Source: a virus | Length of the DNA stretch: 64,000 nt | Virus record (IMG/VR): IMGVR_UViG_3300029414_000238 | Direction: 5' to 3' (one strand) | Shown here: positions 2,486 through 56,322 of the stretch, piece after piece | Position numbering within the stretch: position 1 is the first letter of the stretch | How the letters are laid out: each line of letters opens with the position of its first letter | Program-made: the position numbers and the translations under genes | Notes under the pieces: model-generated | What the model saw: only the letters and a program-made list of their open reading frames with translations | The model's database searches: none | Told to the model about the DNA's origin: nothing

Positions 2486-4309
2486 ATGATCAACGGAGAA
2501 TTAGTTGTAGATAATTTTGCGGGCGGAGGAGGAGCTTCCACAGGAATTGAACTTGCTACCGGATACAGCGTAGACATAGCTATTAACCATGATCCGGAGG
2601 CCATTAAGATGCATAAAGTAAATCATCCCAATACAAAACACTATTGTGAAAACGTATGGGAGGTTGATCCAGTAAAAGCCTGCAAGGGGCACCCTGTCGG
2701 TCTTGCATGGTTTTCTCCGGACTGTAAGCATTTTTCCAAGGCCAAGGGGGGAAAACCGGTAGAAAAGAATATTCGCGGTCTTGCGTGGGTTGTGCTTAAA
2801 TGGGCGGCACTTGTCAGACCAAGAGTTATCATGCTTGAAAATGTGGAAGAATTTCAGACATGGGGACCATGTATTCCTATCAGGGATAAAGATACAGGAC
2901 GCGTTATTGTCAGCATGGTAGGAAGGCATGACAGAGAGAAGAACGAGCCGCGTACGAGGGTTGCAGATCCAGGAGAAGTTGTTCCTGCGGATCGCCAGAT
3001 ATTCCAACCAGATCCTAAAAGGAGCGGCCAGACATACAAAAAATGGAGAAAGCAGCTAGAAGCACTTGGATATGAGATAGATACAAAGGAACTTGTAGCA
3101 GCTGATTATGGCGCACCTACTATGAGAAAGAGATTCTTTATGATTGCACGGTGTGATGGCAAGCCGATTGTCTGGCCGGAACCAACACATGGACCGGCAG
3201 ACAGTGAAGCGGTTAAAGCAGGTCTTGCCAAACCTTATGTAGGAGCGTACACGCAATTGGATTTTTCCATGCCGTGTCCGAGTATATTCGATACATCTAA
3301 GGAAATCAAAGAGAAGTATGGAATACGCGCTGTACGTCCATTGGCGCAGAAAACAATGGATCGAATCGCAAGAGGATTAAAAAAGTTCGTATTAGACAAT
3401 CCGGAGCCGTTTATTATCCAATGCAATCATGGTGGAGAGCGTAGACAAAACGACATCAAAGAGCCTTTACCTACTATTACTGGAAAACACGGATATGGAA
3501 TTGTGGAACCTAAGATTGTTCCATATATGGGAACCAATACAACAAATCATCCAGGTGGAAATTGTAAAAATCCTATACATACAATTACAACAGGAAATCA
3601 ACAGTGCCTTATCAGCCCAACGCTGATTCAGTATCATTCCGAAACATCGAAGGATGAAGTCAGAGGCCAATCGATTGAAGATCCGATAATGACCGTGGAT
3701 GGTTCGAACCGATACGGATTGGTCACGTCGTTTCTACATAAATATTATGACGGAGGATACACTGGAGCTGGTGATACTGTCGAAAATCCGTTACCGACAG
3801 TAACATCCTGGGATCATAACAGTCTGTGTGCAGTTAATCTGATCCAAATGAATAATCATTGCGATGGAAGGGACGTGAAGGAGCCAATTCCAACAATCAC
3901 AGCAGGCGATGGTCATTTCGGAGAGGTTAGAGCATTTCTGATCAAGTATTATGGTCAGGGAACTGGACAGGATGTTAAGGAACCTTTGGATACGGTTACA
4001 TCAAGAGATCGATTTGGTTTAGTTACAATTAATGGTACCGACTATAAGATCGTGGATATCGGATTGAGGATGCTTGAACCGAAAGAACTGTATGGATGCC
4101 AGGGATTTCCAGATGATTACATCATAGACCGCGATTACACAGGGAAAAAATACCCACGGAGTGAGCAGGTACGCAGGTGTGGAAATGCTGTATGTCCTCC
4201 GATTCCGGCTGCTCTTGTAAAAGCAAATCTTCCGGAATTATGTGTGGCGAAGCGTACCGGCAATATGAAAATCCGGGAGGAACAGACCGGACAGCTTGGA
4301 TTTGCATAA
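2486..4309 (+). CDS. DNA (cytosine-5)-methyltransferase
   Basis: Motif I FAGGGGASTG, the motif IV region SPDCKHFSKAKGG, motif VI IMLENVEEF and motif X RRCGNAV are all present. The C-terminal half carries repeated (K)EP(L/I)PT(I/V)T modules typical of phage multispecific C5-MTases. The ORF-track start at 2255 is probably an artefactual extension; ATG 2486 follows a GGGG-rich RBS. Confidence 0.8.
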   Translation: MINGELVVDNFAGGGGASTGIELATGYSVDIAINHDPEAIKMHKVNHPNTKHYCENVWEVDPVKACKGHPVGLAWFSPDCKHFSKAKGGKPVEKNIRGLAWVVLKWAALVRPRVIMLENVEEFQTWGPCIPIRDKDTGRVIVSMVGRHDREKNEPRTRVADPGEVVPADRQIFQPDPKRSGQTYKKWRKQLEALGYEIDTKELVAADYGAPTMRKRFFMIARCDGKPIVWPEPTHGPADSEAVKAGLAKPYVGAYTQLDFSMPCPSIFDTSKEIKEKYGIRAVRPLAQKTMDRIARGLKKFVLDNPEPFIIQCNHGGERRQNDIKEPLPTITGKHGYGIVEPKIVPYMGTNTTNHPGGNCKNPIHTITTGNQQCLISPTLIQYHSETSKDEVRGQSIEDPIMTVDGSNRYGLVTSFLHKYYDGGYTGAGDTVENPLPTVTSWDHNSLCAVNLIQMNNHCDGRDVKEPIPTITAGDGHFGEVRAFLIKYYGQGTGQDVKEPLDTVTSRDRFGLVTINGTDYKIVDIGLRMLEPKELYGCQGFPDDYIIDRDYTGKKYPRSEQVRRCGNAVCPPIPAALVKANLPELCVAKRTGNMKIREEQTGQLGFA

Positions 4310-4449
4310 ATTGCATAAATTGCTATACTGTAAAAAGAAAATGTAAATATTGCTATCATTTGTATTTTTATAGACGTTCATATGCGCAATACATAATTCT
4401 TTTTGAAAAAGTAATGAGATGGTAACAAAGAAAAAAGGAGAGTGAAAGA

Positions 4450-9339: not shown

Positions 9340-9432
9340 ACGATACCAAAGAAAGTCCGGTTTGCAGTGTACGAAAAATGCAACCACCGGTGCAGTTTTT
9401 ACTTCGAAAAGATCGGACTGGATATGGCGTAA
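9340..9432 (+). pseudogene. internally deleted remnant of an HNH endonuclease gene (paralog of 46757-47191)
   Basis: KKVRFAVYEKCNHRC (the HNH start) is fused directly to YFEKIGLD (the HNH C-terminus; compare QFYFEKIGINID at 47120). Confidence 0.5.
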
Positions 9433-9482
9433 GTTTTCAAAAAATCTTTGACGATTTTTCAAAAGGCGCAATATGTATAGTG
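9432..9482 (+). promoter_or_regulatory. conserved promoter-like cassette, copy 2
   Basis: aagttttcaaaaaatctttgacgatttttcaaaaggcgcaatatgtatagtg. Confidence 0.55.
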
Positions 9483-9619
9483 TAAAGGTCATAAACCGAG
9501 CTGCCAGGGTTACCGGCTGGCAGAAAATCCTTTCGAAAAATGTTTACGTTCCGGGAAATCCCCGGAAAGGATAGTGGGTACGCAGCGCAAGTTATTCCGG
9601 GTTCGACTCCCGGATATCC
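9483..9619 (+). ncRNA. structured tRNA-like RNA element, family A copy 1 (candidate 5' leader or sRNA)
   Basis: Three hairpins: ctgccag-ggttaccgg-ctggcag, ccggg-aaat-ccccgg, and a T-arm-like ccgggTTCGActcccgg closed by ggata/tatcc. The second copy at 14513-14646 shows compensatory changes. Confidence 0.4.
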
Positions 9620-9658
9620 TTTTTCAAAATTGCAGGAAAAATGTGGAGGAAAAGAGAA

Positions 9659-9963
9659 TGGATGAACTGATCAAGAAACTTCGGATGTATGCAGACACAT
9701 ACAAAAAAGAACCAGCCGGACGGGAAGTTGAAGGTACCGTGGAATTGCTCGAAAATTCTGCAGATGCTTTGCAGGAAGCAGGGGAGGCTGTTCAAAAATT
9801 AAAGCAGAGATTTGTGGATGGAATAGATGTCCATTACCAGGGACATGATGCCGACGATTACATTGAGTGTCCTTTCTGCGGATACGAGGTTGCAGCGATC
9901 GACGATTACTGTGAGCTGCGCCCAAATCATTGTCCGAAATGTGGAACAAAGCTGATATACTAG
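9659..9963 (+). CDS. hypothetical protein with C-terminal zinc ribbon
   Basis: ATG 9659 follows GGAGGAAAAGAGA. The C-terminus reads CPFCGYEV...CPKCGTKLIY. The ORF-track start at 9574 lies inside the structured leader. Confidence 0.45.
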
Positions 9964-10315
9964 ATATAGGAGGCTGGCATGAAAGAATTGAGGAAGTTGT
10001 GCATGCACCCATTGTGCGATGCAGAGCCAAAAATGCATACGATTTACGAATATATCGGAAAAGCCGGGACGAAAGGTACGACAGTTTTGTGGTTCCTTGA
10101 GATCCCAAAAAAGGAGCCAAAGTGTATGGGATCAGTGAGGAAGACCATGTTTCTCCGTATATGGAAGGCATGGCATTCCGGTATGCAGAATTCAAACCAT
10201 ACATGATTGATGAGATTTACAGCAATGGATTCGTTGTCTGCCACGAGTGTTAGGATGAGACAAAAATGCGTGTCCAATTAACAAGAAGGAATATGCGGTA
10301 AGTAATGGAGATATT

Positions 10316-10795
10316 GTGGATATAAATGCAGAATACCACAAAAGGGCATCAAATCTTGGCATGGAGAAGCAGAGGACTTACCTTCAGTATGAGATCTCCA
10401 AGCCAGATGCCATCAGAAAAGATCTTGAGACCGCAAAAAAGAGGCTGGAAAATGCAAAAGAAAGAAATTTTAAAACGTTGGATGAGTGGGAAGAAAAAAT
10501 TGAAGCTTATACGAAAGTGTTGGAAGATAGCAAAGTATCTTCCTTGTTTTACAATGATATTTCTAACGCCATTTCGGACGGAACAGCACAGTGCCGTATC
10601 TGTACCTTCGTTTGGCGGGGTAAATGGAAATATACGGAAAATATTTCCCTTGGAGTGTGCGTCGTGATCAAGCACATGGGGTACACCTACATTTTTGGCA
10701 CAAGTCCAGACAGCCAGTATTCTCCATGTTTTGCAGTATGGGAAAGCGAAGGAGAACCAGAGCTGGAAGAAGAAAACTACCTTATAGTCAAGTAA
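10316..10795 (+). CDS. hypothetical protein
   Basis: 159-aa ORF. Confidence 0.35.
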   Translation: MDINAEYHKRASNLGMEKQRTYLQYEISKPDAIRKDLETAKKRLENAKERNFKTLDEWEEKIEAYTKVLEDSKVSSLFYNDISNAISDGTAQCRICTFVWRGKWKYTENISLGVCVVIKHMGYTYIFGTSPDSQYSPCFAVWESEGEPELEEENYLIVK

Positions 10796-10847
10796 GAAAG
10801 AAGCCGGGGAATCCCGACTTTTCTGCTGCATTGTGTGTATATTTTAA

Positions 10848-10921
10848 CGCCGCCTGCGGGATTCGAACCCGCGGATAAAGAGTTCAAAGCTCCCTGCGTT
10901 AACCTTTTCGCCAAGGCGGAG
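10848..10921 (-). tRNA. tRNA-Gln (anticodon TTG)
   Basis: Revcomp gives D-arm GCG-AAAAGGTTAA-CGC, anticodon loop CTTTGAA and T-arm GCGGG-TTCGAAT-CCCGC. The anticodon stem carries GU pairs and CCA is not encoded. Confidence 0.4.
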
Positions 10922-10991
10922 CACACCCGGAAGGACTCGAACCCTCGTTACCGGTTTTGGAGACCAGTTTCTGTCCATCAGACAGGTGCAT
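10921..10991 (-). tRNA. tRNA-Trp (anticodon CCA)
   Basis: Anticodon stem-loop CTGGT-CTCCAAA-ACCGG, T-arm GAGGG-TTCGAGT-CCTTC and D-arm TCTG-ATGGA-CAGA. The acceptor stem contains wobble pairs. Confidence 0.45.
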
Positions 10992-10993
10992 AA

Positions 10994-11065
10994 CAGGCGA
11001 TAATGGAATCGAACCATTGTTTTCTGAGTCAGAATCAGATGTCTTACCATTGAACGAATCGCCCA
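10994..11065 (-). tRNA. tRNA-Gln (anticodon CTG)
   Basis: Anticodon stem-loop TCTGA-TTCTGAC-TCAGA, T-arm AATGG-TTCGATT-CCATT, acceptor GGGCGAT/ATCGCCT. Confidence 0.5.
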
Positions 11066-11066
11066 G

Positions 11067-11138
11067 TATCCCCAAAGGGACTCGAACCCTTAACCGACAG
11101 ATTAGAAATCTGTTGCTCTTTCCAATTGAGCTATGGGG
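11067..11138 (-). tRNA. tRNA-Arg (anticodon TCT)
   Basis: Acceptor ATCCCCA/TGGGGAT, D-arm GCTC-AATTGGAAA-GAGC, anticodon stem-loop ACAGA-TTTCTAA-TCTGT, T-arm AAGGG-TTCGAGT-CCCTT. Confidence 0.55.
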
Positions 11139-11145
11139 ATATATA

Positions 11146-11230
11146 GCGCAGACACCGGGGATCGAACCCGGACAGCGGGTGTGCCGCATGCCACATTAGC
11201 AGTGTGGAGGGGTACCATTTACCTTTATAT
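11146..11230 (-). tRNA. tRNA-Ser (anticodon GCT), long variable arm
   Basis: Acceptor GCAGACA/TGTCTGC, anticodon stem-loop CCACA-CTGCTAA-TGTGG, long variable arm, T-arm CCGGG-TTCGATC-CCCGG. The D-arm is atypical. Confidence 0.45.
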
Positions 11231-11239
11231 GTCTGCATA

Positions 11240-11313
11240 AGAGGCATCGGAGGGGATCGAACCCTCGCCTTCCGGGTTGCAGCCGGACGCCTTCGCCGTT
11301 TGGCTACGATGCC
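11240..11313 (-). tRNA. tRNA-Cys (anticodon GCA)
   Basis: Acceptor GGCATCG/CGATGCC, anticodon stem-loop TCCGG-CTGCAAC-CCGGA, T-arm GAGGG-TTCGATC-CCCTC. Confidence 0.6.
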
Positions 11314-11342
11314 ATATAATTCTTCCCGATAAGAGAAGATGA

Positions 11343-11429
11343 GCGCTGGGGCAGGGAGTCGAACCCTGATATCCTTTCGGAATGACGGTTTTCAGGACCG
11401 TTGCTTTACCAGTTGAGCCACCACAGCAA
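11343..11429 (-). tRNA. tRNA-Ser (anticodon TGA), long variable arm
   Basis: Anticodon stem-loop ACGGT-CCTGAAA-ACCGT, a variable-arm hairpin TCC-GAAA-GGA, T-arm CAGGG-TTCGACT-CCCTG. Position 33 is C, which is unusual, and the acceptor has one mismatch. Confidence 0.4.
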
Positions 11430-11672
11430 AAATAAAAGCATACACCTCTCAATCGAAAGATGTATGCTTTGCAATTCCAGGTATTTCCAATATTCTCCCG
11501 GAAATTTCCCTACAATGACCACATTTCTTTCAATTTGAGACAATATTTATTTGCACGACAACTACGCCAGATACATGACTGCGACTGACTCATACTTGCC
11601 TGTGAATATTGTCTCATTACTGCTGTAATCATTGATTTTCCCTTCCTTTCCTTGGTTTTCTTGAATATTTAG

Positions 11673-11749
11673 TGTGTCTGGTGGGACTTGAACCCGACGA
11701 CCCCACGATTAAAAGTCGCGTGCTCTGCCAACTGAGCTACAGACACATA
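11673..11749 (-). tRNA. tRNA-Lys (anticodon TTT)
   Basis: Acceptor GTGTCTG/CAGACAC, D-arm GCTC-AGTTGGCAG-AGC, anticodon loop CTTTTAA. The T-stem has an A.C mismatch. Confidence 0.55.
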
Positions 11750-11823
11750 AGCGGATCAGGAGGGAATCGAACCCTCATCTTCCGGTAGACAGCCGGATGT
11801 ACTAGCCGCTATACTACAGATCC
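11750..11823 (-). tRNA. tRNA, probably Asp (anticodon GTC)
   Basis: T-arm GAGGG-TTCGATT-CCCTC, anticodon stem-loop TCCGG-CTGTCTA-CCGGA. Position 37 is a pyrimidine and the acceptor has a U.U mismatch. Confidence 0.35.
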
Positions 11824-11827
11824 ATAA

Positions 11828-11900
11828 AGCTCCCGTCCGGCTTCGAACCGGAAACCTTCTGATTACAAGTCAGATGCACTACCAGTTGTGCTACAGGAGC
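11828..11900 (-). tRNA. tRNA-Thr (anticodon TGT)
   Basis: Acceptor GCTCCTG/CGGGAGC, D-arm GCAC-AACTGGTAG-TGC, anticodon stem-loop TCTGA-CTTGTAA-TCAGA, T-arm TCCGG-TTCGAAG-CCGGA. Confidence 0.55.
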
Positions 11901-11983
11901 AGGAACACTTCCGACGGGTGCTGCCCCGCTATCTCCGCCGTGACAGGGCGGTGACTCTGTTGTTTGTCCTCGGAAGTAAATAA

Positions 11984-12066
11984 GTGCGCCGGGGAGGACT
12001 CGAACCTCCGGTGTTTCTTTGTGGCTGATTTACAGTCAGCTGCTGTCGCCTCTGAGCCACCGACGC
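11984..12066 (-). tRNA. tRNA-Tyr (anticodon GTA), long variable arm
   Basis: Anticodon stem-loop GCTGA-CTGTAAA-TCAGC, long variable arm, T-arm GGAGG-TTCGAGT-CCTCC. Confidence 0.5.
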
Positions 12067-12071
12067 ATAAG

Positions 12072-12142
12072 CTGGTCCGGAGGGTCTCGAACCCTCAACG
12101 CCCCGGTTAACAGCCGGGTGCTCTACCATTGAGCTACGGATC
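12072..12142 (-). tRNA. tRNA-Asn (anticodon GTT)
   Basis: D-arm GCTC-AATGGTAG-AGC, anticodon stem-loop CCCGG-CTGTTAA-CCGGG, T-arm GAGGG-TTCGAGA-CCCTC. Confidence 0.5.
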
Positions 12143-12145
12143 AGA

Positions 12146-12216
12146 GCATGTGACGGGTCTCGAACCCGCCCGTCCTGCTTGGAAGGCAGGTGTGCCGCCA
12201 ACAACACTTCACATGC
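12146..12216 (-). tRNA. tRNA-Gly (anticodon TCC)
   Basis: Acceptor GCATGTG/CACATGC, anticodon stem-loop CCTGC-CTTCCAA-GCAGG, T-arm CGGG-TTCGAGA-CCCG. Confidence 0.5.
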
Positions 12217-12841
12217 ATGCGGATAAAAGAAGTGCCTGTTTTCTCTTATCCATTCAGTTTTTTTACCGCATCGCTGCGGAGTGGACAGGAGTGGTAACGA
12301 TCCACCCTGTAAGGATTTTCAGTCCTTCGCTAATCCATCTCAGCTACCTGTCCATGGCTTTTTCTGCAATAAAAAAGCCGCATCAAGAAATTTCCTCTTC
12401 TCTCTGCGGTCATCTGCGTTTTGCAATATTTCGGTTTTAAGTGCCTGGTTTAAAATCGAAATCGACCGCGGGAAGGTGTATCATAATAGTTCTGTCCCCA
12501 TGTTTTCCCGGATTTTGAGCATGAGAAACTAAACATATTGCTGAAATCGCCGTATGTTCTACAATCATTATTAAAATTTTTACTACTCATCATCTTTAAC
12601 ATGGTTTTCTTTTCCTTTCATTTTAATTAATGCTGGATAAACAAAAAGCCCGTCACTTAACTCAAAGCTACACATCCAAATAGCTCTGAGTTAAAAGACA
12701 GGCACTTCTTTTATCTCATGCACCTATCATATCATACTGATCGTGAAGTGTCAACAGGAAATTTAAAAAAGGTTATTTTCCTAAAGGTTATTTTTGGTTA
12801 TTTTGGTTATTTTTCAAAATAAAACAAAATAAAACAAATAA

Positions 12842-12870
12842 AAATCTCCGCCAAAATAGACGGAGATTTG
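12842..12870. terminator. bidirectional hairpin terminator
   Basis: aaatctccgcc-aaaataga-cggagattt flanked by A/T runs, lying 3' of minus-strand gene 12875-13495. Confidence 0.5.
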
Positions 12871-12874
12871 AAAA

Positions 12875-13495
12875 TTAACAGGTTAATTCGTAGTCGTACA
12901 GATCGAGCGGCGTTTTGTTTCCGCTGGACCACTCAAACTCTTCGTTGTCCCAAATGCTGCGGGCGTTGTTCAGATTGATCTCATCCGTCAATACCTTTTC
13001 TTCGATATTAATGAACCGTTCCAAAGATTCTTTGAAGCGGTTGATGACTTCCTCGGGATTCTTTGAATGCCAGCTGTATTCGTCGAAAAACCTTCCACTG
13101 GCGGTAATTGTTAATTTCTCGCCGTTATCCGACAATCCAGATAGTTCAAGTGTAACCATTCCCTCGGAAATATCGCTATAATATTCGCCTGGTTTGTTGG
13201 TATCGTTGATTTTGTTCCCTAGTTCTTCCGCTTTTTCCATCATGCCCCAAATTTCCCCTGGAAGCGTAAGGTAGTCTTCTGGATAGTATTCCACGGTTGG
13301 GTTGATTTCCTCTTGCAGGAGATCTTCAACAAAATTGTCTCCTTTAAAAATAGCAAAAGAGTCGACACCTCTTGCGGAAACCTCAACTTTCCCGCATTTG
13401 CATGGGAATATTTTAAAAAGTCTTCTATCTCGAGTGTCATAAGCTACTGAAAAAATGCCGCATTCTTTGCATTTAAAATTTCTTTGTGTTTTCAT
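12875..13495 (-). CDS. hypothetical protein with N-terminal Cys4 zinc ribbon
   Basis: 206-aa ORF with CKECG...CKCG at the N-terminus and the conserved minus-strand promoter element upstream. Confidence 0.5.
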   Translation of the reverse strand: MKTQRNFKCKECGIFSVAYDTRDRRLFKIFPCKCGKVEVSARGVDSFAIFKGDNFVEDLLQEEINPTVEYYPEDYLTLPGEIWGMMEKAEELGNKINDTNKPGEYYSDISEGMVTLELSGLSDNGEKLTITASGRFFDEYSWHSKNPEEVINRFKESLERFINIEEKVLTDEINLNNARSIWDNEEFEWSSGNKTPLDLYDYELTC

Positions 13496-13526
13496 GATTT
13501 TTCTCCCTTCATCAATGGTTTTATTT

Positions 13527-13552
13527 ACACTTTTAATATGAAATATTAAAAA
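13527..13552 (-). promoter_or_regulatory. conserved minus-strand promoter element (ATTTCATATTRAAAGTGTAAA family), copy 1
   Basis: On the minus strand: TTGAAA-N16-TATTAA, then atttcatattaaaagtgtaaa, about 35 nt upstream of ATG 13495. Related copies sit at 14428, 58346 and 58665. Confidence 0.45.
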
Positions 13553-13561
13553 TATTTCAAA

Positions 13562-13610
13562 AAATTTCCGGAAATTTTTGACGAAATTTCAAAAGGCGCA
13601 ATATATGTAA
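13562..13610 (+). promoter_or_regulatory. conserved promoter-like cassette, copy 3
   Basis: aaaaatttccggaaatttttgacgaaatttcaaaaggcgcaatatatgtaatg. Confidence 0.5.
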
Positions 13611-13632
13611 TGAAAGGAGGAGGAAATACAAA

Positions 13633-13965
13633 TTGAAATGTTTGACATGCAAGAAACACTGGTCGCAGGGAGGCCGCTGTTCAGAGAACGTGAGAAACTG
13701 CCTGCATTATGAGGAAGAACCAAGAGGAAAAATGGTCCGCACAGAACTGTCTTTTCGTATGGATGCAGAGGCGGAAACTCCGGTGGTCAGATTTGGAGAG
13801 AAAATACTGGTTTCCGATGGTTCAAAAGCGGTCGAGATGACTGTGGTCAAGATCAACTGGGTTAATCTTCGGGATATGCTCTGCAATGTATCCGCGGATT
13901 ATCATGAGAATGAGATGCCGCGATTTGAGAAAGAAAAGAAGTTCAAAGCATTACATGGAAAATAG
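13633..13965 (+). CDS. hypothetical protein
   Basis: 110-aa ORF; stop TAG 13963-13965 abuts the first CRISPR repeat. Confidence 0.4.
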   Translation: MKCLTCKKHWSQGGRCSENVRNCLHYEEEPRGKMVRTELSFRMDAEAETPVVRFGEKILVSDGSKAVEMTVVKINWVNLRDMLCNVSADYHENEMPRFEKEKKFKALHGK

Positions 13966-14071
13966 TTGCATTCCAGTGGAATGCATGGGGTGAAAGAAAT
14001 AGGCAAATCGCATGACAATTTCTGAAATTAAATTGTTGCGCTCCCGTGGAGGGGGGCGTATGGATTGAAAT
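13965..14071 (+). CRISPR. mini-array: degenerate repeat - 37-nt spacer - repeat (type I-C-like repeat family)
   Basis: gttgcattccagtggaatgcatggggtgaaag ... gttgcgctcccgtggaggggggcgtatggattgaaat. Confidence 0.6.
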
Positions 14072-14124
14072 GTGGAATCCTGTGATTGGCACATACTTGG
14101 GTGTAGTGCAGAAAAAGTGACCCA

Positions 14125-14400
14125 TTACAGATCACTTTCGATGAAAATTTGCTTTGCGATTTTTCCGATCACCCAATTTGGAATGTCGCTGCGGCATCCA
14201 GAATGGATTTCTCCGTTTTCAACAAAAAAGAATGCGGATTCTTCCGTTTTCATGCGGTCTAAAGCTTGCGCAGAAAAATATAAGGAATGGTGGAAGTCGC
14301 ATCTTTGTGCCTCCTCATATGTATGGACTTCCTCTATTTTCCCATCGATCAGGCTGACACAGCCGGACCAGAACTCTTTTCCTTCGAATATTGCTGCCAT
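14125..14400 (-). CDS. hypothetical protein
   Basis: 91-aa ORF with the conserved minus-strand promoter element upstream (14428-14452). Confidence 0.45.
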   Translation of the reverse strand: MAAIFEGKEFWSGCVSLIDGKIEEVHTYEEAQRCDFHHSLYFSAQALDRMKTEESAFFFVENGEIHSGCRSDIPNWVIGKIAKQIFIESDL

Positions 14401-14461
14401 GTTTTGCTCCTTTCAAAATACTTTCGTTTACACTTTCAATATGAAATGAAAATATTTCAAA

Positions 14462-14510
14462 ACATTTCCAAAAACTTTTGACGATTTTTTAAATGGCGCA
14501 ATATGTATCA
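14462..14510 (+). promoter_or_regulatory. conserved promoter-like cassette, copy 4
   Basis: aacatttccaaaaacttttgacgattttttaaatggcgcaatatgtatcatg. Confidence 0.55.
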
Positions 14511-14512
14511 TG

Positions 14513-14646
14513 TAAAGGTCATAAACCGAGCTGCCAGGGTTATCGGCTGGCAGAAATCTTTTCGATATTTGTTTACACTCCGGGGAAACCCGGAAGGGGT
14601 AGTGAGGACGCAGCGTGTGCTGTTTCCGGGTTCGATTCCCGGGTAT
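14513..14646 (+). ncRNA. structured tRNA-like RNA element, family A copy 2
   Basis: Same three-hairpin architecture as 9483-9619 with covarying stems (ccgggg-aaa-cccgg; ccgggTTCGAttcccgg). Confidence 0.4.
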
Positions 14647-14928
14647 CCCTTTTGACTGCCACATACGGTCTTCTCAAAATTCAGCCGTCTGCGGCCTGTG
14701 GAACTTTCCACTGGACCAAAATAACGATAACCGCCAGAATAACAGCAGCGTGCGTTGGCGTGAGAACTATCGGCGCACAGGGATTACTCCTTTCATATTT
14801 ATCTATCAAACCTTTCCGTACATCGTATGGAAAGGTTATGGGACAGCAGGTGCATAGACATGAACTATTCCGGGATCGTTTCCCGGATGTTCCATTTTTA
14901 AAACATTAAAACAAATCATAGGAGGGAA

Positions 14929-15657
14929 TTGATGATGGAGAAAGAAGTAGTATATGTTGCAGAACTGGATTCCGATGTTGATGATGTCGTTGCGGCACAT
15001 TACTTATTTAACGAGGGTGTGTTAAAGTGTGTAGTATGCGATCCATATCCAAGAACACCGGAGGGGTTGGCACGAAAGGGAAAGCTGGAAGCGCTTGGCA
15101 TCGATGTGGTTAAGAAAATGCCACCGGTTGCAAAATATGTGTTTGTTGGCGGCGCTCTTACGGCTGTTGCTGGCTATATCCGGATGCACCATGTCGACTG
15201 GCTGGTAATGAACGGAGGCTTTGTTGGAGCAAATATTGCGACCTTTGAACTGGATAAGTTCAAGGGGAAGAACACTGTCCGTACCTTCAATTTCAACTGC
15301 GATGTTGTGGCTGCAGATACGGTTTTGAAAACTGATGAGAAGCATATTTCTCATATTGTTCTTGTCGGAAAAAACGTCTGCCATGACGTCCGAAATACGA
15401 AAAATGGTCTCTGGAGTGGCGAGAAATACAAGAAATTGTTCGATGAGTACCGGGTTAAGGATGAGAAGCGTCAACACGACTTGCTTGCCTGCCATGAGGG
15501 GCTTGCATTTCTGCGGGGAACCAATGCGATCTGTGAGTATGAGATGGTAAGACCATACAACACAGGCTTGAATGGCAAGCTGACGCAGTGGGGTAGCACA
15601 AAAACCATGGAAACACCATATCGCGAAGTGCTTGCTGCTGTTGGCTACCAGAATTAA
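14929..15657 (+). CDS. hypothetical protein with a weak nucleoside-hydrolase-like N-terminal Asp cluster
   Basis: AELDSDVDDVVAAHY resembles the DXDXXXDD fingerprint but is one residue short. A long 5' leader of about 280 nt separates it from the cassette. Confidence 0.35.
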   Translation: MMMEKEVVYVAELDSDVDDVVAAHYLFNEGVLKCVVCDPYPRTPEGLARKGKLEALGIDVVKKMPPVAKYVFVGGALTAVAGYIRMHHVDWLVMNGGFVGANIATFELDKFKGKNTVRTFNFNCDVVAADTVLKTDEKHISHIVLVGKNVCHDVRNTKNGLWSGEKYKKLFDEYRVKDEKRQHDLLACHEGLAFLRGTNAICEYEMVRPYNTGLNGKLTQWGSTKTMETPYREVLAAVGYQN

Positions 15658-15659: not shown

Positions 15660-15765
15660 GCTGCATCATGTGCGGGGGTGTATGGATTGAAATGTCGGAG
15701 TATGGTGTAAGAATCATATATATTCCTACGTTGTGCTCCTCCCGGTTGGTGCACGGGTTGAAATA
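15660..15765 (+). CRISPR. mini-array: repeat - 36-nt spacer - degenerate repeat
   Basis: gctgcatcatgtgcgggggtgtatggattgaaat ... gttgtgctcctcccggttggtgcacgggttgaaat; it starts 3 nt after the stop of 14929-15657. Confidence 0.6.
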
Positions 15766-17335: not shown

Positions 17336-17355
17336 GTAAGAAGATATACTTTACT

Positions 17356-17574
17356 GTTGCGCCCCATTGGGTGCATGGGTTGAAATCTTTATGACCTTCT
17401 GAAAAGTGAGGGCATCTTAGTTGCACCCCCGCAAGGGATGTATGGGTTGAAATTCAATAGAAACAGATGCATTCGAAGGCGTTACAAGTTGCACCCCGCG
17501 AGGGGTGTATGGGTTGAAATTGCAGAAAGCTCAGGATTGGAAGGTTGCATCCTATGGGATGCATGGATTGAAAC
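17356..17574 (+). CRISPR. CRISPR array, 4 repeats and 3 spacers, I-C-like repeats
   Basis: gttgcgccccattgggtgcatgggttgaaat / gttgcacccccgcaagggatgtatgggttgaaat / gttgcaccccgcgaggggtgtatgggttgaaat / gttgcatcctatgggatgcatggattgaaac. Confidence 0.75.
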
Positions 17575-17650: not shown

Positions 17651-17710
17651 CAATTTTTTAAAAATTTTCCAAAATCTTTTGACGATTTTTTAAAAGGCGC
17701 AATATACATA
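17651..17710 (+). promoter_or_regulatory. conserved promoter-like cassette, copy 5
   Basis: aaaaattttccaaaatcttttgacgattttttaaaaggcgcaatatacatattg. Confidence 0.55.
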
Positions 17711-17711
17711 T

Positions 17712-17920
17712 TGAAGGGATAAACAGGGGCTTACCGTTTGTTTCTTCAATAAGAGTTTTTCTCTTATATGCCTCCTTAAGTTTCCTGCGCTGCATTTACA
17801 GCATTTTGGCAGCGCAGGGGGAATCCACAGGACTGCATTTGACGTTGTGTGGCGGCCTGCTCATCCGGTTCAACCCCGGAGGATTCCCTTACCGCTTATT
17901 TTTGCGGAGACAAAAATTTT
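17712..17920 (+). ncRNA. candidate small RNA, family B, between two cassette copies
   Basis: No ORF is present. Starts aaacaggggcttaccg, as the cas-operon leader does (17981-, aaacaggggcttgccg). Contains a 10-bp perfect hairpin cctgcgctgc...gcagcgcagg and a T-loop-like ccGGTTCAAccCCgg, and ends in the terminator ccgcttatttttgcgg plus A/T run. Confidence 0.35.
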
Positions 17921-17975
17921 AAAAAATATTCAAAAATTCTTTGACGATTTTTTAAAAGGCGCAATATGTGTATTG
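17921..17975 (+). promoter_or_regulatory. conserved promoter-like cassette, copy 6 (candidate cas-operon promoter)
   Basis: aaaaatattcaaaaattctttgacgattttttaaaaggcgcaatatgtgtattg, 90 nt upstream of cas5c. Confidence 0.55.
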
Positions 17976-18020
17976 AAGGAATAAACAGGGGCTTGCCGCT
18001 GTTGATTACCAGAGTTAAAA

Positions 18021-18053
18021 GTTGTGCCCCTATGGGGTGCATGGGTAATAAGA
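18021..18053 (+). CRISPR. solo degenerate repeat-like hairpin in the cas5c 5' leader
   Basis: gttgtgcccctatggggtgcatgggtaataagag against the array repeat gttgcaccccgcgaggggtgtatgggttgaaat. Confidence 0.5.
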
Positions 18054-18060
18054 GAAAGGA

Positions 18061-18735
18061 ATGGAAAAAGAAAAAATGGGAGTGAAACTAAAAGTCTGGG
18101 GAGATTACGCATTGTTCACCAGACCAGAACTGAAAACTGAACGGTATACATACGATGTGATGACACCGTCGGCGGCTAGAGGAATTCTGGAATCTATCTA
18201 CTGGCATCCGGGACTTCGGTGGTATGTAGACAAGATTCATGTATTAAATCCGATTGCCACTACGAGCGTGAGAAGAAATGAACTTCTCAGTAAGATACCA
18301 AAGTCAAATATGCTGCAGGCATACAACGGCGGGGATGTGAAACTGTATAACTCGTCAAGAGACGATATTATCCAGAGGGCATCTGTTATTCTCCGGGATG
18401 TCTGCTATGTGATTGAGGCGCATTTTGAAATGACAGGGAAAGCGAGCCCAACAGACAGCCCGGCAAAGTTTATAAGTATCTTTAACAACAGGGCAAGAAA
18501 AGGGGCATGTTATTCGATGCCGTATTTTGGTGTAAGGGAATTCCCGGCACACTTTGAACTCTGCGAAGGAGATGAAAAGATCCCATCCTACTATGAAGGA
18601 CTTCCGGATAAAGATCTCGGGCTGATGCTTTATGATCTGGATTACTCCTGCGGTAGAGATATCCAGCCAATGTATTATCATGCGATTATGAAAAACGGCG
18701 TTATTGACGTTGGGAACAGTGAGGTGCTTCGATGA
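18061..18735 (+). CDS. cas5: Cas5c (Cas5d, type I-C)
   Basis: VWGDYALFTRPELKTERYTYDVMTPSAARGILESIYWHPGLRWYVDKIHVL is the Cas5d N-terminal signature; the gene overlaps cas8c by ATGA. Confidence 0.85.
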   Translation: MEKEKMGVKLKVWGDYALFTRPELKTERYTYDVMTPSAARGILESIYWHPGLRWYVDKIHVLNPIATTSVRRNELLSKIPKSNMLQAYNGGDVKLYNSSRDDIIQRASVILRDVCYVIEAHFEMTGKASPTDSPAKFISIFNNRARKGACYSMPYFGVREFPAHFELCEGDEKIPSYYEGLPDKDLGLMLYDLDYSCGRDIQPMYYHAIMKNGVIDVGNSEVLR

Positions 18736-20471
18736 TCCTTCAGTCACTTGTGAAATTATATGAAACACTTGCGGATCAGGGAAAAGTGTCCCGTCCTGGC
18801 TGGTGTAATGCAAAGGTATCCTATGCGGTGGTTTTAAACCATGATGGGACGATTAAAGATATTGTTTCCGTGAAACAGAAAGTGAAGAGAGGAAAGAAGA
18901 CTGTTGAAATTCCAATAATTATGCAGGTTCCAGAGATGGTCACCCGCGCTAACAACATTGCCTCCAGCTTTCTCTGCGAAAATGCAAAGTATCTCTTTGG
19001 GATTGACGAAAAGATGAGTTTGCGTACACTGGAATGTTTTAAGGCGGCAAAGAAAAAACATCTTGATATTCTTGATGTTGTGGATTCACCTGTAGCACAG
19101 ACGGTATGTAACTTTTTCCGTTCATGGGATCCGGAACAGGCGTTGGATCAACCGGCTGTTGCAAAACTTGCAGAAGAGTTTTATAAAGGCGGAAACCTCG
19201 TTTTTGAAGTAGATGGGGAATATGTGCATGATAATGAAGAAGTCCGCAGGGCATGGATGGATTACAGCAGTGTACCATATGAAATGGTAACTGGAAGATG
19301 CCTTATTACTGGAGAGGAAGCGGAGATTGCCCGCACGCACGGGAAAATCAAAGGAGTTCCGGGAGCACAGTCATCTGGCGCGTCGCTTGTATCATTTAAC
19401 GGAGCATCCCTTGAGTCTTATGAAAAAACACAGAGCTACAACGCGCCGATTAGCACCTATGCGGCGTATGCATATGTGACCGCGCTGAATTACTTGCTTT
19501 CTACGGACGGGTATCACAGCAAGGTAGGAGATTCCATGGTGGTTTTCTGGACAGATTCCGGGGATGTGGATGATGTGAGCAGACTGCGGAAGATGATGGG
19601 AAGCATCAATGAAAAGGATCACACCCCTACAGATACGGATGAAAAACTGTACGTCCTCTGCCTTGCACCAAATGCCGGGCGAATTGCAGTCCGGTTCTTC
19701 TATGAGGATGCGATCGGGGTAATCTGGGAAAACCTGTCCGAACATGCCAGTCGGATGAAGATTGTAAAACCAGTATTTGAGGATCAAGAATTTATCAATA
19801 TCTGGCAGATGCTCATGGAGACAGTCAACCAGAATCTTACAGATAAAATACCTGTCCCGCATATGTCAGCAATGACGTTACAGTCAGTCATTTCGGATAC
19901 ACCGTATCCGCAGAGTCTGTATGCAGGTGTGTTATCTCGTATCCGCGCGGAGCACAAAGGTGTTACTTACAGAAAAGCATCGATTATTAAAGCTTTTTTA
20001 ATAAAGAACTACAAATGGGAGGAAGGAAAAAATATGGAAGCATTAAATGAAGGCTGTAAGGATCGGGCATATATCCTTGGAAGACTGTTTGCGGTTATGG
20101 AAAAGGCACAGAAAGAAGCAGTTGGCAATATCAACCAGACAATTTGTGATAAGTTTTACAATTCCGCGTGCACAACACCAAGATCGATCTTTCCAGTACT
20201 GATCAGGCTATCTAACAGTCATTTAAGTAAGTTGAAACGGACAAAACCGGGGAGAGGATATTATTTTACAGCTAAAATGCAGGATTTAATGGATAAAATT
20301 CCGGTAACAGATGATGATCCGGGATTCCCGCGGCGTTTCTCATATGAGGATCAGGGTAAGTTTGCACTTGGTTATTATCATCAGATGCGGGCGGAATATA
20401 CAAGCAGTAAGTTAAAAGATAATGATTCAGAAGGTGATCAGACAAATGCAGAGAATATGGAGGAAAACTAA
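18732..20471 (+). CDS. cas8c: Cas8c (Csd1, type I-C large subunit)
   Basis: 579 aa; MILQSLVKLYETL is the typical Csd1 start; it lies between cas5 and cas7. Confidence 0.8.
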   Translation: MILQSLVKLYETLADQGKVSRPGWCNAKVSYAVVLNHDGTIKDIVSVKQKVKRGKKTVEIPIIMQVPEMVTRANNIASSFLCENAKYLFGIDEKMSLRTLECFKAAKKKHLDILDVVDSPVAQTVCNFFRSWDPEQALDQPAVAKLAEEFYKGGNLVFEVDGEYVHDNEEVRRAWMDYSSVPYEMVTGRCLITGEEAEIARTHGKIKGVPGAQSSGASLVSFNGASLESYEKTQSYNAPISTYAAYAYVTALNYLLSTDGYHSKVGDSMVVFWTDSGDVDDVSRLRKMMGSINEKDHTPTDTDEKLYVLCLAPNAGRIAVRFFYEDAIGVIWENLSEHASRMKIVKPVFEDQEFINIWQMLMETVNQNLTDKIPVPHMSAMTLQSVISDTPYPQSLYAGVLSRIRAEHKGVTYRKASIIKAFLIKNYKWEEGKNMEALNEGCKDRAYILGRLFAVMEKAQKEAVGNINQTICDKFYNSACTTPRSIFPVLIRLSNSHLSKLKRTKPGRGYYFTAKMQDLMDKIPVTDDDPGFPRRFSYEDQGKFALGYYHQMRAEYTSSKLKDNDSEGDQTNAENMEEN

Positions 20472-20472
20472 G

Positions 20473-21384
20473 ATGAGCACACCAATTAAGAACAGATATG
20501 ATTTCGTAGTATTATTCGACGTAGAGAATGGAAATCCGAACGGTGATCCGGATGCCGGAAATATGCCGAGAGTTGATCCAGAGACTGGCATCGGGCTTGT
20601 GACAGATGCCTGCATAAAGCGCAAGATCCGTAATTATGTGGAAACTGTAAAAGAAGATGCAGCCGGGTTCAAGATCTATATTAAAGAGGGGGTCCCGCTG
20701 AACCGGAGTGACCTTAAGGCAGTCGAAAGTCTTGGTATTGACGTCGGTGACGACAAAAATGCACTTGAAGATGTAAAGAAGCTGAAAAAGACAGATGAAG
20801 ATGTGGATCTTAAGCTCCGTGACTATATGTGTAGTAATTTCTATGATATCCGTACATTTGGTGCTGTCTTGACTACCTTTACAAAGGCGGCATTAAACTG
20901 TGGGCAGGTACGTGGCCCGGTACAGATTGGTTTTGCAAAAAGTATTGATCCTGTTTTCAGCCAGGATATTACTGTAACCAGAGTTGCAATCACAACGGAA
21001 AAGGATGCGGAAAAGAAAAATACAGAAATGGGAAGAAAGAGTATTATTCCTTATGGACTTTACCGTGTGGAGGGATATATTTCTGCTAATCTTGCCCGTA
21101 AGACCACCGGCTTTTCTGAAGACGATCTGGAACTGCTTTGGGAAGCAATCATTAACATGTTTGAGAATGACCATTCCGCAGCACGCGGGAAGATGGCAGT
21201 GCGTGAGCTCATCGTATTCAAGCATAACAGCGAGCTTGGCAATTGTCCATCGTACAAACTGTTTGAAACTGTTGATGTTAAGAAGAATGATGGTGTTGAG
21301 TTTCCTCGTAAATATTCCGATTATGCAGTGACTATTCATGAGGATGCGATTCCGGATGGCGTGACAATGACTCGCAAAATCTAA
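20473..21384 (+). CDS. cas7: Cas7c (Csd2, type I-C)
   Basis: MSTPIKNRYDFVVLFDVENGNPNGDPDAGNMPRVDPETGIGLVTDACIKRKIRNYV is the Csd2 signature. ATG 20473 sits 1 nt after the cas8c stop; the ORF-track start at 20422 is an artefactual extension. Confidence 0.85.
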   Translation: MSTPIKNRYDFVVLFDVENGNPNGDPDAGNMPRVDPETGIGLVTDACIKRKIRNYVETVKEDAAGFKIYIKEGVPLNRSDLKAVESLGIDVGDDKNALEDVKKLKKTDEDVDLKLRDYMCSNFYDIRTFGAVLTTFTKAALNCGQVRGPVQIGFAKSIDPVFSQDITVTRVAITTEKDAEKKNTEMGRKSIIPYGLYRVEGYISANLARKTTGFSEDDLELLWEAIINMFENDHSAARGKMAVRELIVFKHNSELGNCPSYKLFETVDVKKNDGVEFPRKYSDYAVTIHEDAIPDGVTMTRKI

Positions 21385-21634: not shown

Positions 21635-22346
21635 GCTACGCCCCATGGAGGGGCGTATGGATTGAAAATACCGCAACAATTAAAGGCAATGAAAATCTTG
21701 TACGCTACGCCCCATGGAGGGGCGTATGGATTGAAAATGATTGTTATTGTTTTTTATTCATGGAGAGGAAAGCTACGCCCCATGGAGGGGCGTATGGATT
21801 GAAAAGTAAGGTTTCGTCTCGAAGCCTTTATTCTGTTTTGCTGCGCCCCATGGAGGGGCGTATGGATTGAAATACCAAAATCTTTTGACATTCTTATAAA
21901 TGGTAACAGCTACGTCTTATGGGGTACGTATGGATTGAAATCATAATAATTGTAGAGATCTCAATACAAAATAAAGCTGCGTCTCATGGAATACGTATGG
22001 ATTGAAATGAAAAGGCGAGTTTGCGAAAGCAGATATTGGAATGTTGCGTCTCGTGGAGTACGTATGGATTGAAATTCCAACTTTAACTACATAACTATCC
22101 TGATAAACTTGCTGCACCCCATGGAGAGTGTATGGATTGAAATTTAAAAAATCATGGATAACATCTGCGATAAGACGTTGCACCTCGCTAGGGGTGTATG
22201 GGTTGAAATTTCCATAATCGGTAGCCAATTATTATCATTAGGTGTTGCACCCCATAGAGGGTGTATGGATTGAAATTATATAAAAATGATGAATATGTAA
22301 AAAAAATAAAAGAGTTACGCTCCATGGAGTGCGTATGGCTTGAAAC
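21635..22346 (+). CRISPR. CRISPR array, 11 repeats of 33 nt and 10 spacers of 33-37 nt, type I-C repeat family
   Basis: The first four leader-proximal repeats are identical (gctacgccccatggaggggcgtatggattgaaa); later repeats diverge progressively (..gtcttatggggtac.., ..gcaccccatagagggtg..). The period is 66-70 nt and the last repeat ends GAAAC. ORFs 21587-21870 and 21941-22228 are artefacts of the repeats. Confidence 0.9.
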
Positions 22347-22417
22347 CTCTTATTTTTTTAAAGATATCACAATTACGCCCAAAGTGGGCTTACGTAAATT
22401 TAAAGGAGAAAAGTACA

Positions 22418-25333: not shown

Positions 25334-25822
25334 ATGAATACGTTGGAAAATTTAGAAATGGTATTGTTTGACTTTGATGATACGCTGTGTATACATAGTC
25401 ATCGCTCAGATTCTTATGAGGAACTGATGGAATATTTGTCATATATTCATTCAGGTGAAACATTTCCAAAATCATGGAATAAATCAAAACCGAATTTGCA
25501 GTTAAAGAAATTCATGGATTATCTTGCTTATAAGAATATCCCTATGGGTTTAATTAGCGGAGTGCGTGATTGTAAGACTGCGGAAAGAAAGATCAAATGG
25601 GTTAAAGAAAATTACGGTTACTTACTGGAAAATTACTGTGTATCCAGTCAGGAACAGAAGATTATTGAACTTAAGGTCCTTGCAAAGGTTAACAGGCTTC
25701 ATGAAAACCAGATTGCTATTATCGACGATTTATATCCCAATCTTGAAAAAGCAGAAAGTGAAGGTTTCGTTGCTCTTTCCCCAATGCAGGTTGTCAATTT
25801 ATTTAATGAAATATCTAAATAG
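25334..25822 (+). CDS. HAD-superfamily hydrolase-like protein
   Basis: Motif I VLFDFDDTL; paralog of the N-terminal half of 26012-27007. Confidence 0.5.
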   Translation: MNTLENLEMVLFDFDDTLCIHSHRSDSYEELMEYLSYIHSGETFPKSWNKSKPNLQLKKFMDYLAYKNIPMGLISGVRDCKTAERKIKWVKENYGYLLENYCVSSQEQKIIELKVLAKVNRLHENQIAIIDDLYPNLEKAESEGFVALSPMQVVNLFNEISK

Positions 25823-26011
25823 AGACCTACTGATACTGCCGAGATTGCACAAGATTACGATTTTCCATTGCAGGATATGTGAGAGATAATTTGTTGAATT
25901 AGAGGTGATTATATTGGATTTATTTGGAAGAGATTTATGGACCCAAGCAGATGAAGATTTTTTAGGTAGAAAGTGTTATTTGTTGCAAAGTACGGTTGGA
26001 AGGGGATTTTA

Positions 26012-38160: not shown

Positions 38161-38165
38161 AAAAT

Positions 38166-42916: not shown

Positions 42917-43020
42917 GTTGCACTCCCGCGGAGGGGGTGCATGGATTGAAATCGACTTTCAAAACGGTAATTGGATTTTACTACGCTGCGTCCCCGCGAG
43001 GGGCGCATGGATAAAGAAAC
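42917..43020 (+). CRISPR. mini-array: repeat - 32-nt spacer - degenerate repeat, in the 5' leader of gene 43039
   Basis: gttgcactcccgcggagggggtgcatggattgaaat ... gctgcgtccccgcgaggggcgcatggataaagaaac. Confidence 0.6.
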
Positions 43021-56296: not shown

Positions 56297-56322
56297 ATGC
56301 CTCACAAAAAAGGAGAAAAAAT

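Follow-up and report, generated by a model that had tools for sequence, protein, structure and literature searches.

Within the virus record IMGVR_UViG_3300029414_000238 of IMG/VR, a stretch of 64,000 nucleotides (nt) hereafter called the window, we identified two diverged copies of a structured non-coding RNA, termed family A, that follows a repeated promoter-like cassette and ends in a transfer RNA (tRNA)-like module. An initial annotation of this DNA had proposed a structured, tRNA-like, non-coding RNA directly after the cassette, and this core interpretation is supported by our analysis. The copies (9480-9626 and 14510-14655, both on the plus strand) define an element of ~146 nt and share 83% identity over 143 nt by BLASTN (E ~1e-35), in line with the two copies of ~80% identity that had been described. 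Their similarity starts in the cassette (TTGACG at 9448 and 14478), reaches the U run (9624 and 14653) and goes no further, and in both copies the element starts a few bases past the cassette, where it had been placed. The element had been annotated with ~135 nt; its start lies a few bases further upstream, and its end is at the U run. Our preferred but tentative reading, which we regard as plausible rather than probable, is that family A is a cassette-driven non-coding RNA or leader whose tRNA mimic would serve as an end-forming signal or as a processing signal for RNase P and RNase Z.

Family A is composed of a nearly invariant 5' part of ~75 nt and a tRNA-like module of ~55 nt at its 3' side (Table 1). 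All three hairpins named in the initial annotation were found in both copies. In the 5' part, a conserved, single-stranded linker connects the helix around hairpin 1 to hairpin 2. The module comprises a 7-base-pair (bp) acceptor-like stem, a GG-containing loop, a stub of 3–5 bp, a 6-bp T-stem and a 7-nt T-loop, with UUU behind it. The stub usually ends in a GNRA tetraloop and takes the place of the anticodon arm; the 23–24 nt between the acceptor-like stem and the T-stem are made up of the GG loop and this 3–5-bp stub with its 4-nt loop, and neither an anticodon arm (5-bp stem, 7-nt loop) nor a D-stem is present in either copy. The copies had been described as lacking both CCA and acceptor pairing. 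They do lack CCA, but the GGATA/TATCC closure is part of the 7-bp acceptor-like stem.

The two copies alone provide weak structural evidence, because they contain a single compensatory pair and their folding energy is no better than that of shuffled sequences (z = -1.1 and -1.4). Of the compensatory changes noted earlier, one is a true pair (A-U to G-C, in the closing stem), and the other four are one-sided and wobble-compatible. Homologues were sought in metagenome contigs by scanning with a 21-mer from the 5' part, which gave 21 loci, and with a covariance model built from the two copies, a search that the initial annotation had suggested. This recovered 15 distinct full-length members (125–175 bits) from gut-metagenome contigs of the same element lineage, as well as a variant, L038/L045 (102 bits), in which the tRNA-like 3' part is replaced by a small hairpin. 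All 15 members follow the cassette, with the module starting 90–94 nt after it. Across the 15 sequences, 97.8% of cells are paired, whereas slid controls reach no more than 57%. Double changes occur at five pairs, a number equalled in 1 of 500 shuffles; neither the percentage paired nor the covariation score was reached by any of the 500. Double changes affect four of the seven pairs of the acceptor-like stem, in at least two lineages. The 5' helix AAAGG/CCUUU is paired throughout (100%), with a double change at one of its five pairs, and hairpin 2 is paired in 93% of cells; changes in the T-stem are restricted to wobble pairs, and hairpin 1 never varies. The case for a real RNA structure becomes convincing once the 15 homologues are considered.

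Because it is invariant, hairpin 1 gives no covariation evidence for pairing in RNA. As a perfect inverted repeat, CTGCCAG-N9-CTGGCAG could instead act in the DNA, either as a palindromic repressor operator just past the promoter or as a site for the type I-C Cascade of the element, which lacks Cas3. The first spacer of a mini-array of clustered regularly interspaced short palindromic repeats (CRISPR), located at 17387-17420, would fit the latter, as it matches 11 nt antisense of the RNA 5' end: its positions 2–12 are the antisense of AAGGTCATAAA at 9485-9495 and 14515-14525. However, this match starts at position 2 and is flanked by TCG rather than by TTC, the type I-C protospacer-adjacent motif (PAM), and its chance occurrence is estimated at ~0.05. 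A CRISPR link resting on one 11-nt spacer match without a proper PAM was rejected as probably due to chance. The non-palindromic flanks of hairpin 1 are as conserved as the hairpin itself, the surrounding AAAGG/CCUUU helix has its compensatory change, and the palindrome was seen only in the two RNA copies, although no dedicated search of the window was run. A role at the DNA level is therefore very improbable.

The variation within the module follows the pattern of tRNA. Positions U1, C3 and A5 of the T-loop are invariant, while position 2 is U or C and position 4 is G, A or C; the D-like loop always contains GG, and helix lengths are constant across members. This pattern suggests that the tRNA mimicry is under selection and did not arise by coincidence. 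In the 5' part, conservation extends outside the search word. In relatives of the copy-1 type, identity to the window copy amounts to 88–93% in the 5' domain, 81–83% in the 3' domain, ~78% in the adjacent gene and 55% in the linker. Family A RNAs are 146, 147, 148 or 150 nt long, and since these lengths differ by non-multiples of three, a 138-amino-acid (aa) open reading frame (ORF) predicted by gene callers over copy 2 (14493-14909) can be excluded, its frame being broken among homologues. Together with the covariation across the family, these length differences bear out the earlier proposal of a non-coding function at the RNA level. Two helices suggested by RNAalifold were not retained: a small GGU...ACC hairpin is broken in L042a, L035b and L007, and a P1 helix GUAAA/UUUAC, though compatible with the data, has no double changes, whereas AAAGG/CCUUU has one.

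The location of the two copies on either side of an array of 13–14 tRNA genes raises the question of whether they are functionless remnants, such as decayed tRNA pseudogenes or tRNA-derived att-site scars. Their T-arm, CCGGGTTCGAYTCCCGG, is almost identical to that of a tRNA-Ser-like gene in the array (11148-11236), and the lineage L035b/L050 is clearly decaying. Yet the acceptor-like stem is maintained by covariation at a fixed position after the cassette, conservation is higher in the 5' domain than in the adjacent gene, and independent sequence families share the same plan (see below). Furthermore, exact-protein look-ups, which lead to near-identical loci, place RNA of 99–100% identity in hundreds of assemblies. 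The remnant explanation is already disfavoured, and we consider it the most improbable of those discussed here.

We compared family A with known RNA classes by searching Rfam at the gathering score over the whole window and in E-value mode (E up to 10) on 9400-9700, 14430-14730, 14640-14940 and 17690-18070. At the gathering score, ARAGORN and Rfam (RF00005) call only true tRNAs and neither of the two copies, which argues, as previously suggested, that the copies are not fragments of a known tRNA or transfer-messenger RNA (tmRNA) gene. The recommended Rfam check for tRNA, tmRNA and T-box gave no match to either copy at the gathering score. In E-value mode, the only match to the tRNA clan is to tRNA-Sec, for copy 2 (16.5 bits, E = 1), and T-box has no match even at E up to 10; the downstream genes are unrelated to aminoacylation. 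For tmRNA there is no ARAGORN call and no Rfam match, and family A contains no tag ORF. The best relaxed match of both copies is Deinococcus Y RNA (RF01053; 18–19 bits against a gathering score of 80, E 0.5–0.8), covering only model positions 43–85 of 126, which correspond to its tRNA-like part. The single match to mascRNA reaches 14 bits (E = 3.6).

The cassette that precedes family A is 27–35 nt long and occurs in eight near-identical copies in the window, all on the plus strand and co-oriented with the genes. Its sequence is TTGACGATTTTTCAAAAGGCGCAATAT(GTATNNTG), also written TTGACGATTTTTCAAAAGGCGCAATAT(GTATAGTG), and its upstream part is A/T-rich. Four of the eight copies lead directly into a ribosome-binding site (RBS) and an ORF, two into family A and two into family B, and some are preceded by terminator-like hairpins. 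The cassette is probably the standard promoter of the element. A simple sigma-70 scan did not call it, and its spacing is unlike a simple sigma-70 -35/-10 pattern; a Sigma70_r2 protein is encoded in the relatives L012 and L028. A degenerate cassette (CCAAAATCTTTTGACATTCTTATAAATGG) also occupies the place of a "spacer" (21874-21908) between the two repeat types of the main CRISPR array, where it is probably the promoter of the second array.

Family A is not the only RNA of the window with a terminal tRNA-like module. We scanned for a T-arm with U-N-C-N-A and a 7-bp acceptor stem, using block-wise dinucleotide shuffles as control. On its coding strand, the window contains four such modules that are not tRNAs, where the shuffles give 0.18; these are both copies of family A, a module termed mod3 (14839-14894) and the end of family B (17819-17888). 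The mod3 module lies 190 nt beyond copy 2, immediately ahead of the RBS of a gene at ~14932. Its acceptor-like stem, ATGGGACA/TGTTCCAT, has 8 bp, of which the scan reports the inner 7, and its T-loop is ATCGTTT, with the canonical TTCGAGT in the orthologues of L048 and L037. Mod3, which is sequence-unrelated, matches model R1 with E = 7e-5. The non-coding stretch between copy 2 and mod3 (14656-14810) contains stems such as GUGCG...CGCAC and has no Rfam match in E-value mode. Family B ends in a module with an 8-bp acceptor-like stem and a TTCAACC T-loop, is followed by a cassette and no gene, and has no Rfam match (17690-18070). It had been annotated, behind the cassette then placed at 17651, as a different RNA. 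Its sequence is indeed unrelated to that of family A, but it follows the same plan with a terminal tRNA-like module. Elements that are otherwise near-identical can differ in whether they carry family B, which is absent from L043.

Two further families, C (L036 and L040) and D (L037 and L048), were found on related contigs. Families B and C have in common a 5' hairpin starting with GAAGGG, a second hairpin, a ACCUCCUUAA motif, a long GC hairpin and the tRNA-like module; the ACCUCCUUAA motif resembles the anti-Shine-Dalgarno end of 16S ribosomal RNA. The distance from the cassette is 90–132 nt for families A, B and C and 334–382 nt for mod3, and the 420 nt upstream of family D yielded no cassette. 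In families A, B, C and D as well as in mod3, a GC hairpin stands 0–2 nt before the acceptor-like stem, the acceptor-like and T-stems add up to a 13-bp stack (7+6 or 8+5), and UU or UUU follows. Sequence-unrelated families thus share one plan of hairpin, tRNA-like module and U run. None of the window modules matches an Rfam family, in a search that covered the window and not families C and D. Family A and its sister families have not been described previously.

Table 1. Positions of the RNA elements, cassettes and neighbouring features (window coordinates unless a contig is named)
Feature	Position	Strand	Details
Promoter-like cassette, all copies	6661, 9448, 13578, 14478, 17679, 17941, 41073, 45485	+	
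Cassette before copy 1	9448..9482	+	TTGACGATTTTTCAAAAGGCGCAATATGTATAGTG
Copy 1, conserved 5' domain	9480..9549	+	helix AAAGG 9484-9488/CCTTT 9529-9533 around hairpin 1; linker ...TGTTTAC
Hairpin 1, CTGCCAG-N9-CTGGCAG	9501-9523 (copy 1), 14531-14553 (copy 2)	+	invariant
Copy 1, GC hairpin 2	9550..9566	+	TCCGGG AAATC CCCGGA; abuts tRNA-like module
Copy 1, tRNA-like module and U run	9567..9624	+	
Copy 1, parts of module	9567-9573/9615-9621; 9574-9581; 9582-9595		acceptor-like stem; GG loop; stub hairpin (GCAA loop)
Copy 1, T-arm	9596-9614		loop TTCGACT; closed by AAGGATA/TATCCTT; T run to 9624
Zinc-ribbon-like gene after copy 1	9658..9963	+	101 aa
Cassette before copy 2	14478..14512	+	
Copy 2, 5' domain	14510..14594	+	5' helix 14514-14518/14558-14562; hairpin 1 14531-14553; hairpin 2 14579-14594
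Copy 2, tRNA-like module and U run	14595..14653	+	acceptor-like stem 14595-14601/14644-14650, AGGGGTA/TATCCCT
Copy 2, T-arm	14625-14643	+	loop TTCGATT
Non-coding extension after copy 2	14656..14810	+	84-88% identical in L035, L048, L049, L047, L037
mod3, hairpin and tRNA-like module	14811..14899	+	hairpin 14811-14837; module 14838-14895; then T run
Family B, cassette-driven RNA	17706..17900	+	5' hairpin, CCUCCUUAA motif, GC hairpin, tRNA-like module 17819-17888
Families B/C region	17706-17900; L036:4640-4885; L040:4005-4250		
Mini- and longer CRISPR arrays	13964-14071, 15660-15764, 17354-17574, 21635-22351, 42920-43019, 57305-57396		

The sequences downstream of family A differ from copy to copy. 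The RNA is followed by the zinc-ribbon gene, by a ResIII/DEAD helicase gene, by a membrane protein gene, by a long conserved non-coding extension leading to mod3 and then a nucleoside-hydrolase-like gene, by another cassette (L049/L047) or, in one decaying lineage, by nothing. The RBS of the zinc-ribbon gene lies 31–34 nt past the U run, which leaves no room for another cassette, and several members have a U run shorter than a canonical terminator would need. The zinc-ribbon gene must therefore be expressed by read-through of the RNA. A dedicated leader function for this gene was rejected, as the RNA is missing upstream of homologues with 53–66% identity (L012-L023, L028 and L029) and with 83% identity (L027) and is kept only in the 81–87% identical relatives L030 and L031. 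Since many homologues of the protein have no such RNA upstream, family A is not tied to the zinc-ribbon gene.

Based on these features, we propose how family A could work. The comparison establishes the two copies and their family, the structure with its tRNA-like geometry, the lack of coding function and the return of one plan in unrelated leaders; the promoter activity of the cassette, RNase P/Z cutting or termination at the module, and the role of the 5' domain are what we infer. Family A would be transcribed from the cassette as a ~146-nt non-coding RNA with two modules. The 5' module of ~85 nt (the helix around the 7-bp hairpin, the linker and the GC hairpin) could be the functional payload or a sensor, as its almost invariant sequence suggests. 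In the 3' module, the 7-bp acceptor-like stem would stack on the 6-bp T-stem, and the GG loop could form a tRNA elbow. Host RNase P would then cleave where the acceptor-like stem begins on its 5' side, and RNase Z would cleave behind the unpaired U next to that stem; the short U run may in addition stop part of the transcription. Cleavage would set free the 5' RNA, whose new 3' end the abutting GC hairpin would protect, and detach it from the downstream messenger RNA (mRNA). CCA-less tRNA precursors are matured by RNase Z cleavage after the discriminator (PMC8549757), and the element's own tRNAs should depend on RNase Z because their genes encode no CCA. A generic role of this kind fits the varied downstream contexts: the module recurs behind unrelated 5' domains and before unrelated genes. 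The conservation of the tRNA elbow serves no purpose in a plain terminator, and the 5' domain is conserved beyond the level of the neighbouring gene (88–93% compared with ~78%).

Several observations weigh against processing by RNase P and RNase Z. The acceptor-plus-T stack measures 13 bp, while the canonical value is 12; position +1 is an A-U pair and the A at -1 lies inside a stable hairpin, which is not ideal for RNase P; and position 2 of the T-loop is C in most members. The module also appears dispensable for the role of the 5' domain, because a small hairpin replaces it in L038/L045. UUU follows every module but not the real tRNAs of the element, which argues that the module acts at least partly in termination. 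Finally, an alternative pairing at the expense of the acceptor-like stem is allowed sterically.

Both of the latter points would fit a cis-acting transcription attenuator, in which the 5' domain senses a factor (protein, RNA or ligand), the acceptor-like stem and U run form the terminator, and UCCUUUC (9528-9534) acts as antiterminator by pairing with GAAAGGA, the 5' strand of the acceptor-like stem. The RNA is promoter-proximal, an RBS lies 30–60 nt downstream in most contexts, and there is a four-segment arrangement, AAAGG / UCCUUUC / GAAGGGA / UCCCUUU. The alternative pairing is chosen by minimum-free-energy folds of several members and is pairable in 93–96%, and a lenient terminator scan flags both T-arms with their T-rich tails. 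However, the terminator would be branched and tRNA-shaped, being closed by the stem next to the U run; several homologues keep only CCCUUUCAA as U run, and only 2–3 unpaired U remain in L049, L035a and L047. The alternative helices show no double changes, and the existing ones support the acceptor 5'/3' strands and AAAGG/CCUUU. The antiterminator-type fold, possible but without covariation support, was accordingly not adopted. An attenuator would not need the conserved T-loop and GG, the downstream genes are functionally unrelated, and in two contexts a cassette follows in place of a gene. Attenuation is thus rather unlikely.

Alternatively, family A could act in trans as a small RNA, its single-stranded stretches pairing with targets or its module sequestering, as decoy or sponge, a host or defence factor that binds tRNA. 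This would resemble bacterial Y RNAs (YrlA), which use a tRNA-like domain, and the best, albeit weak, Rfam similarity of family A is to the tRNA-like part of Deinococcus Y RNA, including a GCAA-capped stub followed by the T-arm. The extreme conservation of the 5' sequence and the placement of cassette-driven units before another cassette (as with family B of the window and with family A of L049/L047) are compatible with an independent RNA, and the tRNA array of the element suggests a conflict over tRNAs. Against these points, no specific target emerged: there are ~25 11-mer complementarities, compared with an estimated ~8 by chance, and they are largely A/T-rich or tRNA T-arm words. A decoy for anticodon nucleases is impossible because there is no anticodon arm. 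No TROVE/Ro60 match was found among the 20 larger window ORFs scanned against Pfam, and the zinc-ribbon gene depends on read-through of the RNA. We therefore consider a trans-acting role unlikely, and retain the end-forming or processing signal as the preferred interpretation.

The window is treated as part of a giant plasmid- or phage-like extrachromosomal element of human-gut Firmicutes. The 101-aa zinc-ribbon-like protein encoded after copy 1 is indexed in 2192 blocks of public assemblies, which places the carrier element in thousands of human-gut assemblies. Contigs with this protein reach ~355 kb and none exceeds 1 Mb; the element measures roughly 300 kb. A distant relative of the zinc-ribbon gene is annotated in an Agathobacter metagenome-assembled genome. 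At the sensitivity used, the carrier element has no counterpart in PLSDB, INPHARED, IMG/VR or GTDB representative genomes. An 18-mer scan of the viral contig collection gave one chance match in a coding region and a cassette scan gave nothing; a scan of genome contigs gave three chance matches, all rejected by the covariance model. BLASTN of the RNA gave one short chance match in phages and none in plasmids, and the plasmid collection contained no match for a 7-kb stretch (BLASTN) or for the relaxase (tblastn). PHROGs and Pfam scans of the window proteins found Mob_Pre, PcfJ-like, SPFH/flotillin, C5 methylase and Cascade genes and left the phage or plasmid nature of the element undecided.

The window encodes 14 tRNAs (ARAGORN and Rfam gathering score), of which 13 form a minus-strand array between the two family A copies (10847-12353). 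In a gap of this array, we observed an 89-nt tRNA-like gene on the minus strand (11148-11236) that both programs missed. This gene, probably tRNA-Ser(GCU), has an acceptor stem GCAGACA/TGTCTGC, a T-arm CCGGG TTCGATC CCCGG, a long variable arm and the anticodon loop CUGCUAA; its orthologue is located at L035:5097-5185. A similar uncalled tRNA-Glu(UUC)-like gene is present at L037:8515-8588.

The type I-C genes cas5, cas8c and cas7 occupy 18061-21384 and have neither cas3 nor cas1, cas2 or cas4 next to them. In the leader just 5' of cas5, a degenerate CRISPR repeat (GTTGTGCCCCTATGGGGTGCATGGGTAATAAG; 18024-18052) suggests possible autoregulation by Cas5d or Cascade. Many mini-CRISPR arrays, often of two repeats and one spacer, and two longer arrays are dispersed among the genes, with heterogeneous type I-C-like repeats, and resemble CreA/CreR-like or solitary-repeat regulators. 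Upstream of the Mob_Pre relaxase gene (61732-62787), ~10 iteron-like repeats (AGTATCACCTTNNTGGTAC, paired at 24-nt spacing) span 60032-60912, a likely origin of replication or transfer. Tandem and dispersed duplications of 150–300 nt with 75–95% identity (37610-38745, 25470-26429, 47019-47889, and 3089-4312 versus 55897-57196) indicate paralogous gene pairs.

Eukaryotic nuclei, organelles and some viruses employ tRNA mimics as handles for processing, and in bacterial Y RNAs such mimics act as domains that bind protein; the tRNA-like structural module as such is already known from other systems. To our knowledge, no bacterial mobile element has been described in which tRNA-like modules unrelated in sequence, all directly preceded by a hairpin, stand behind copies of one promoter cassette. 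If the modules are RNase P/Z sites, they would offer a simple, testable example of a mobile element that borrows the host tRNA maturation machinery to shape its transcriptome, and could be used as natural RNA-processing parts in Firmicutes. A candidate new regulatory RNA is the invariant 5' domain. A bolder extension, possible but doubtful, is that the element uses a tRNA-mimic toolkit as universal "punctuation", with host RNase P/Z cutting each cassette-driven transcript at the hairpin-plus-module. In that case, a set of small RNAs (families A, B, C and D) would be matured and leader-less mRNAs released, forming a bacterial counterpart of MALAT1-mascRNA and mitochondrial tRNA punctuation, and the mini-tRNAs set free in this way might acquire CCA and serve a function themselves.

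The family A module resembles tRNA and the tRNA domain of tmRNA in its 7-bp acceptor-type stem, its T-stem with a 7-nt loop, the T-loop U...A pair and C3, and its GG loop, and like the element's own tRNA genes it encodes no CCA. Unlike tRNA, it has no anticodon arm and no D-stem, its T-stem has 6 bp, giving the 13-bp stack, and most members have C at position 2 of the T-loop, where tRNAs carry the universal U55. In contrast to tmRNA, the acceptor-like stem is local and not made by the RNA termini. The bacterial Y RNAs (Deinococcus Y RNA and YrlA) show the same order of GG-containing loop, GNRA-type-capped stub and canonical T-arm. Family A differs from them in that it lacks the long Ro-binding stem formed by the 5' and 3' ends, and its topology is not permuted, the acceptor-like stem being closed locally.

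With promoter-proximal leaders, such as riboswitch and attenuator leaders and the put antitermination RNAs of phage HK022, family A has in common its two diverged copies per genome directly after related promoters and the combination of a conserved, hairpin-containing 5' domain with a terminator-like element. Riboswitch and attenuator leaders and HK022 put have no sequence or Rfam relationship to family A, the "terminator" of which is tRNA-shaped with a short U run.

Close parallels in architecture are MALAT1-mascRNA and the t-elements of plant mitochondria, in which a tRNA look-alike is cut from a longer transcript and thereby separates the upstream RNA. These systems are eukaryotic or organellar, while family A resides on a bacterial extrachromosomal element. 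Its module is also promoter-proximal, 90–130 nt after a repeated cassette, with a 13-bp stack and a U run behind it. The t-elements contribute to mRNA 5' and 3' end formation (PMC1920247). The predicted tRNA-like fold of family A is embedded between the cassette and the downstream RBS, as expected for an RNA of the mascRNA/t-element type. As in MALAT1/MEN-beta mascRNA and the t-elements, the tRNA look-alike of family A lacks a normal anticodon arm and lies within a longer transcript, a structure that may protect the 3' end is located directly upstream, and the module is generic, recurring in several transcripts.

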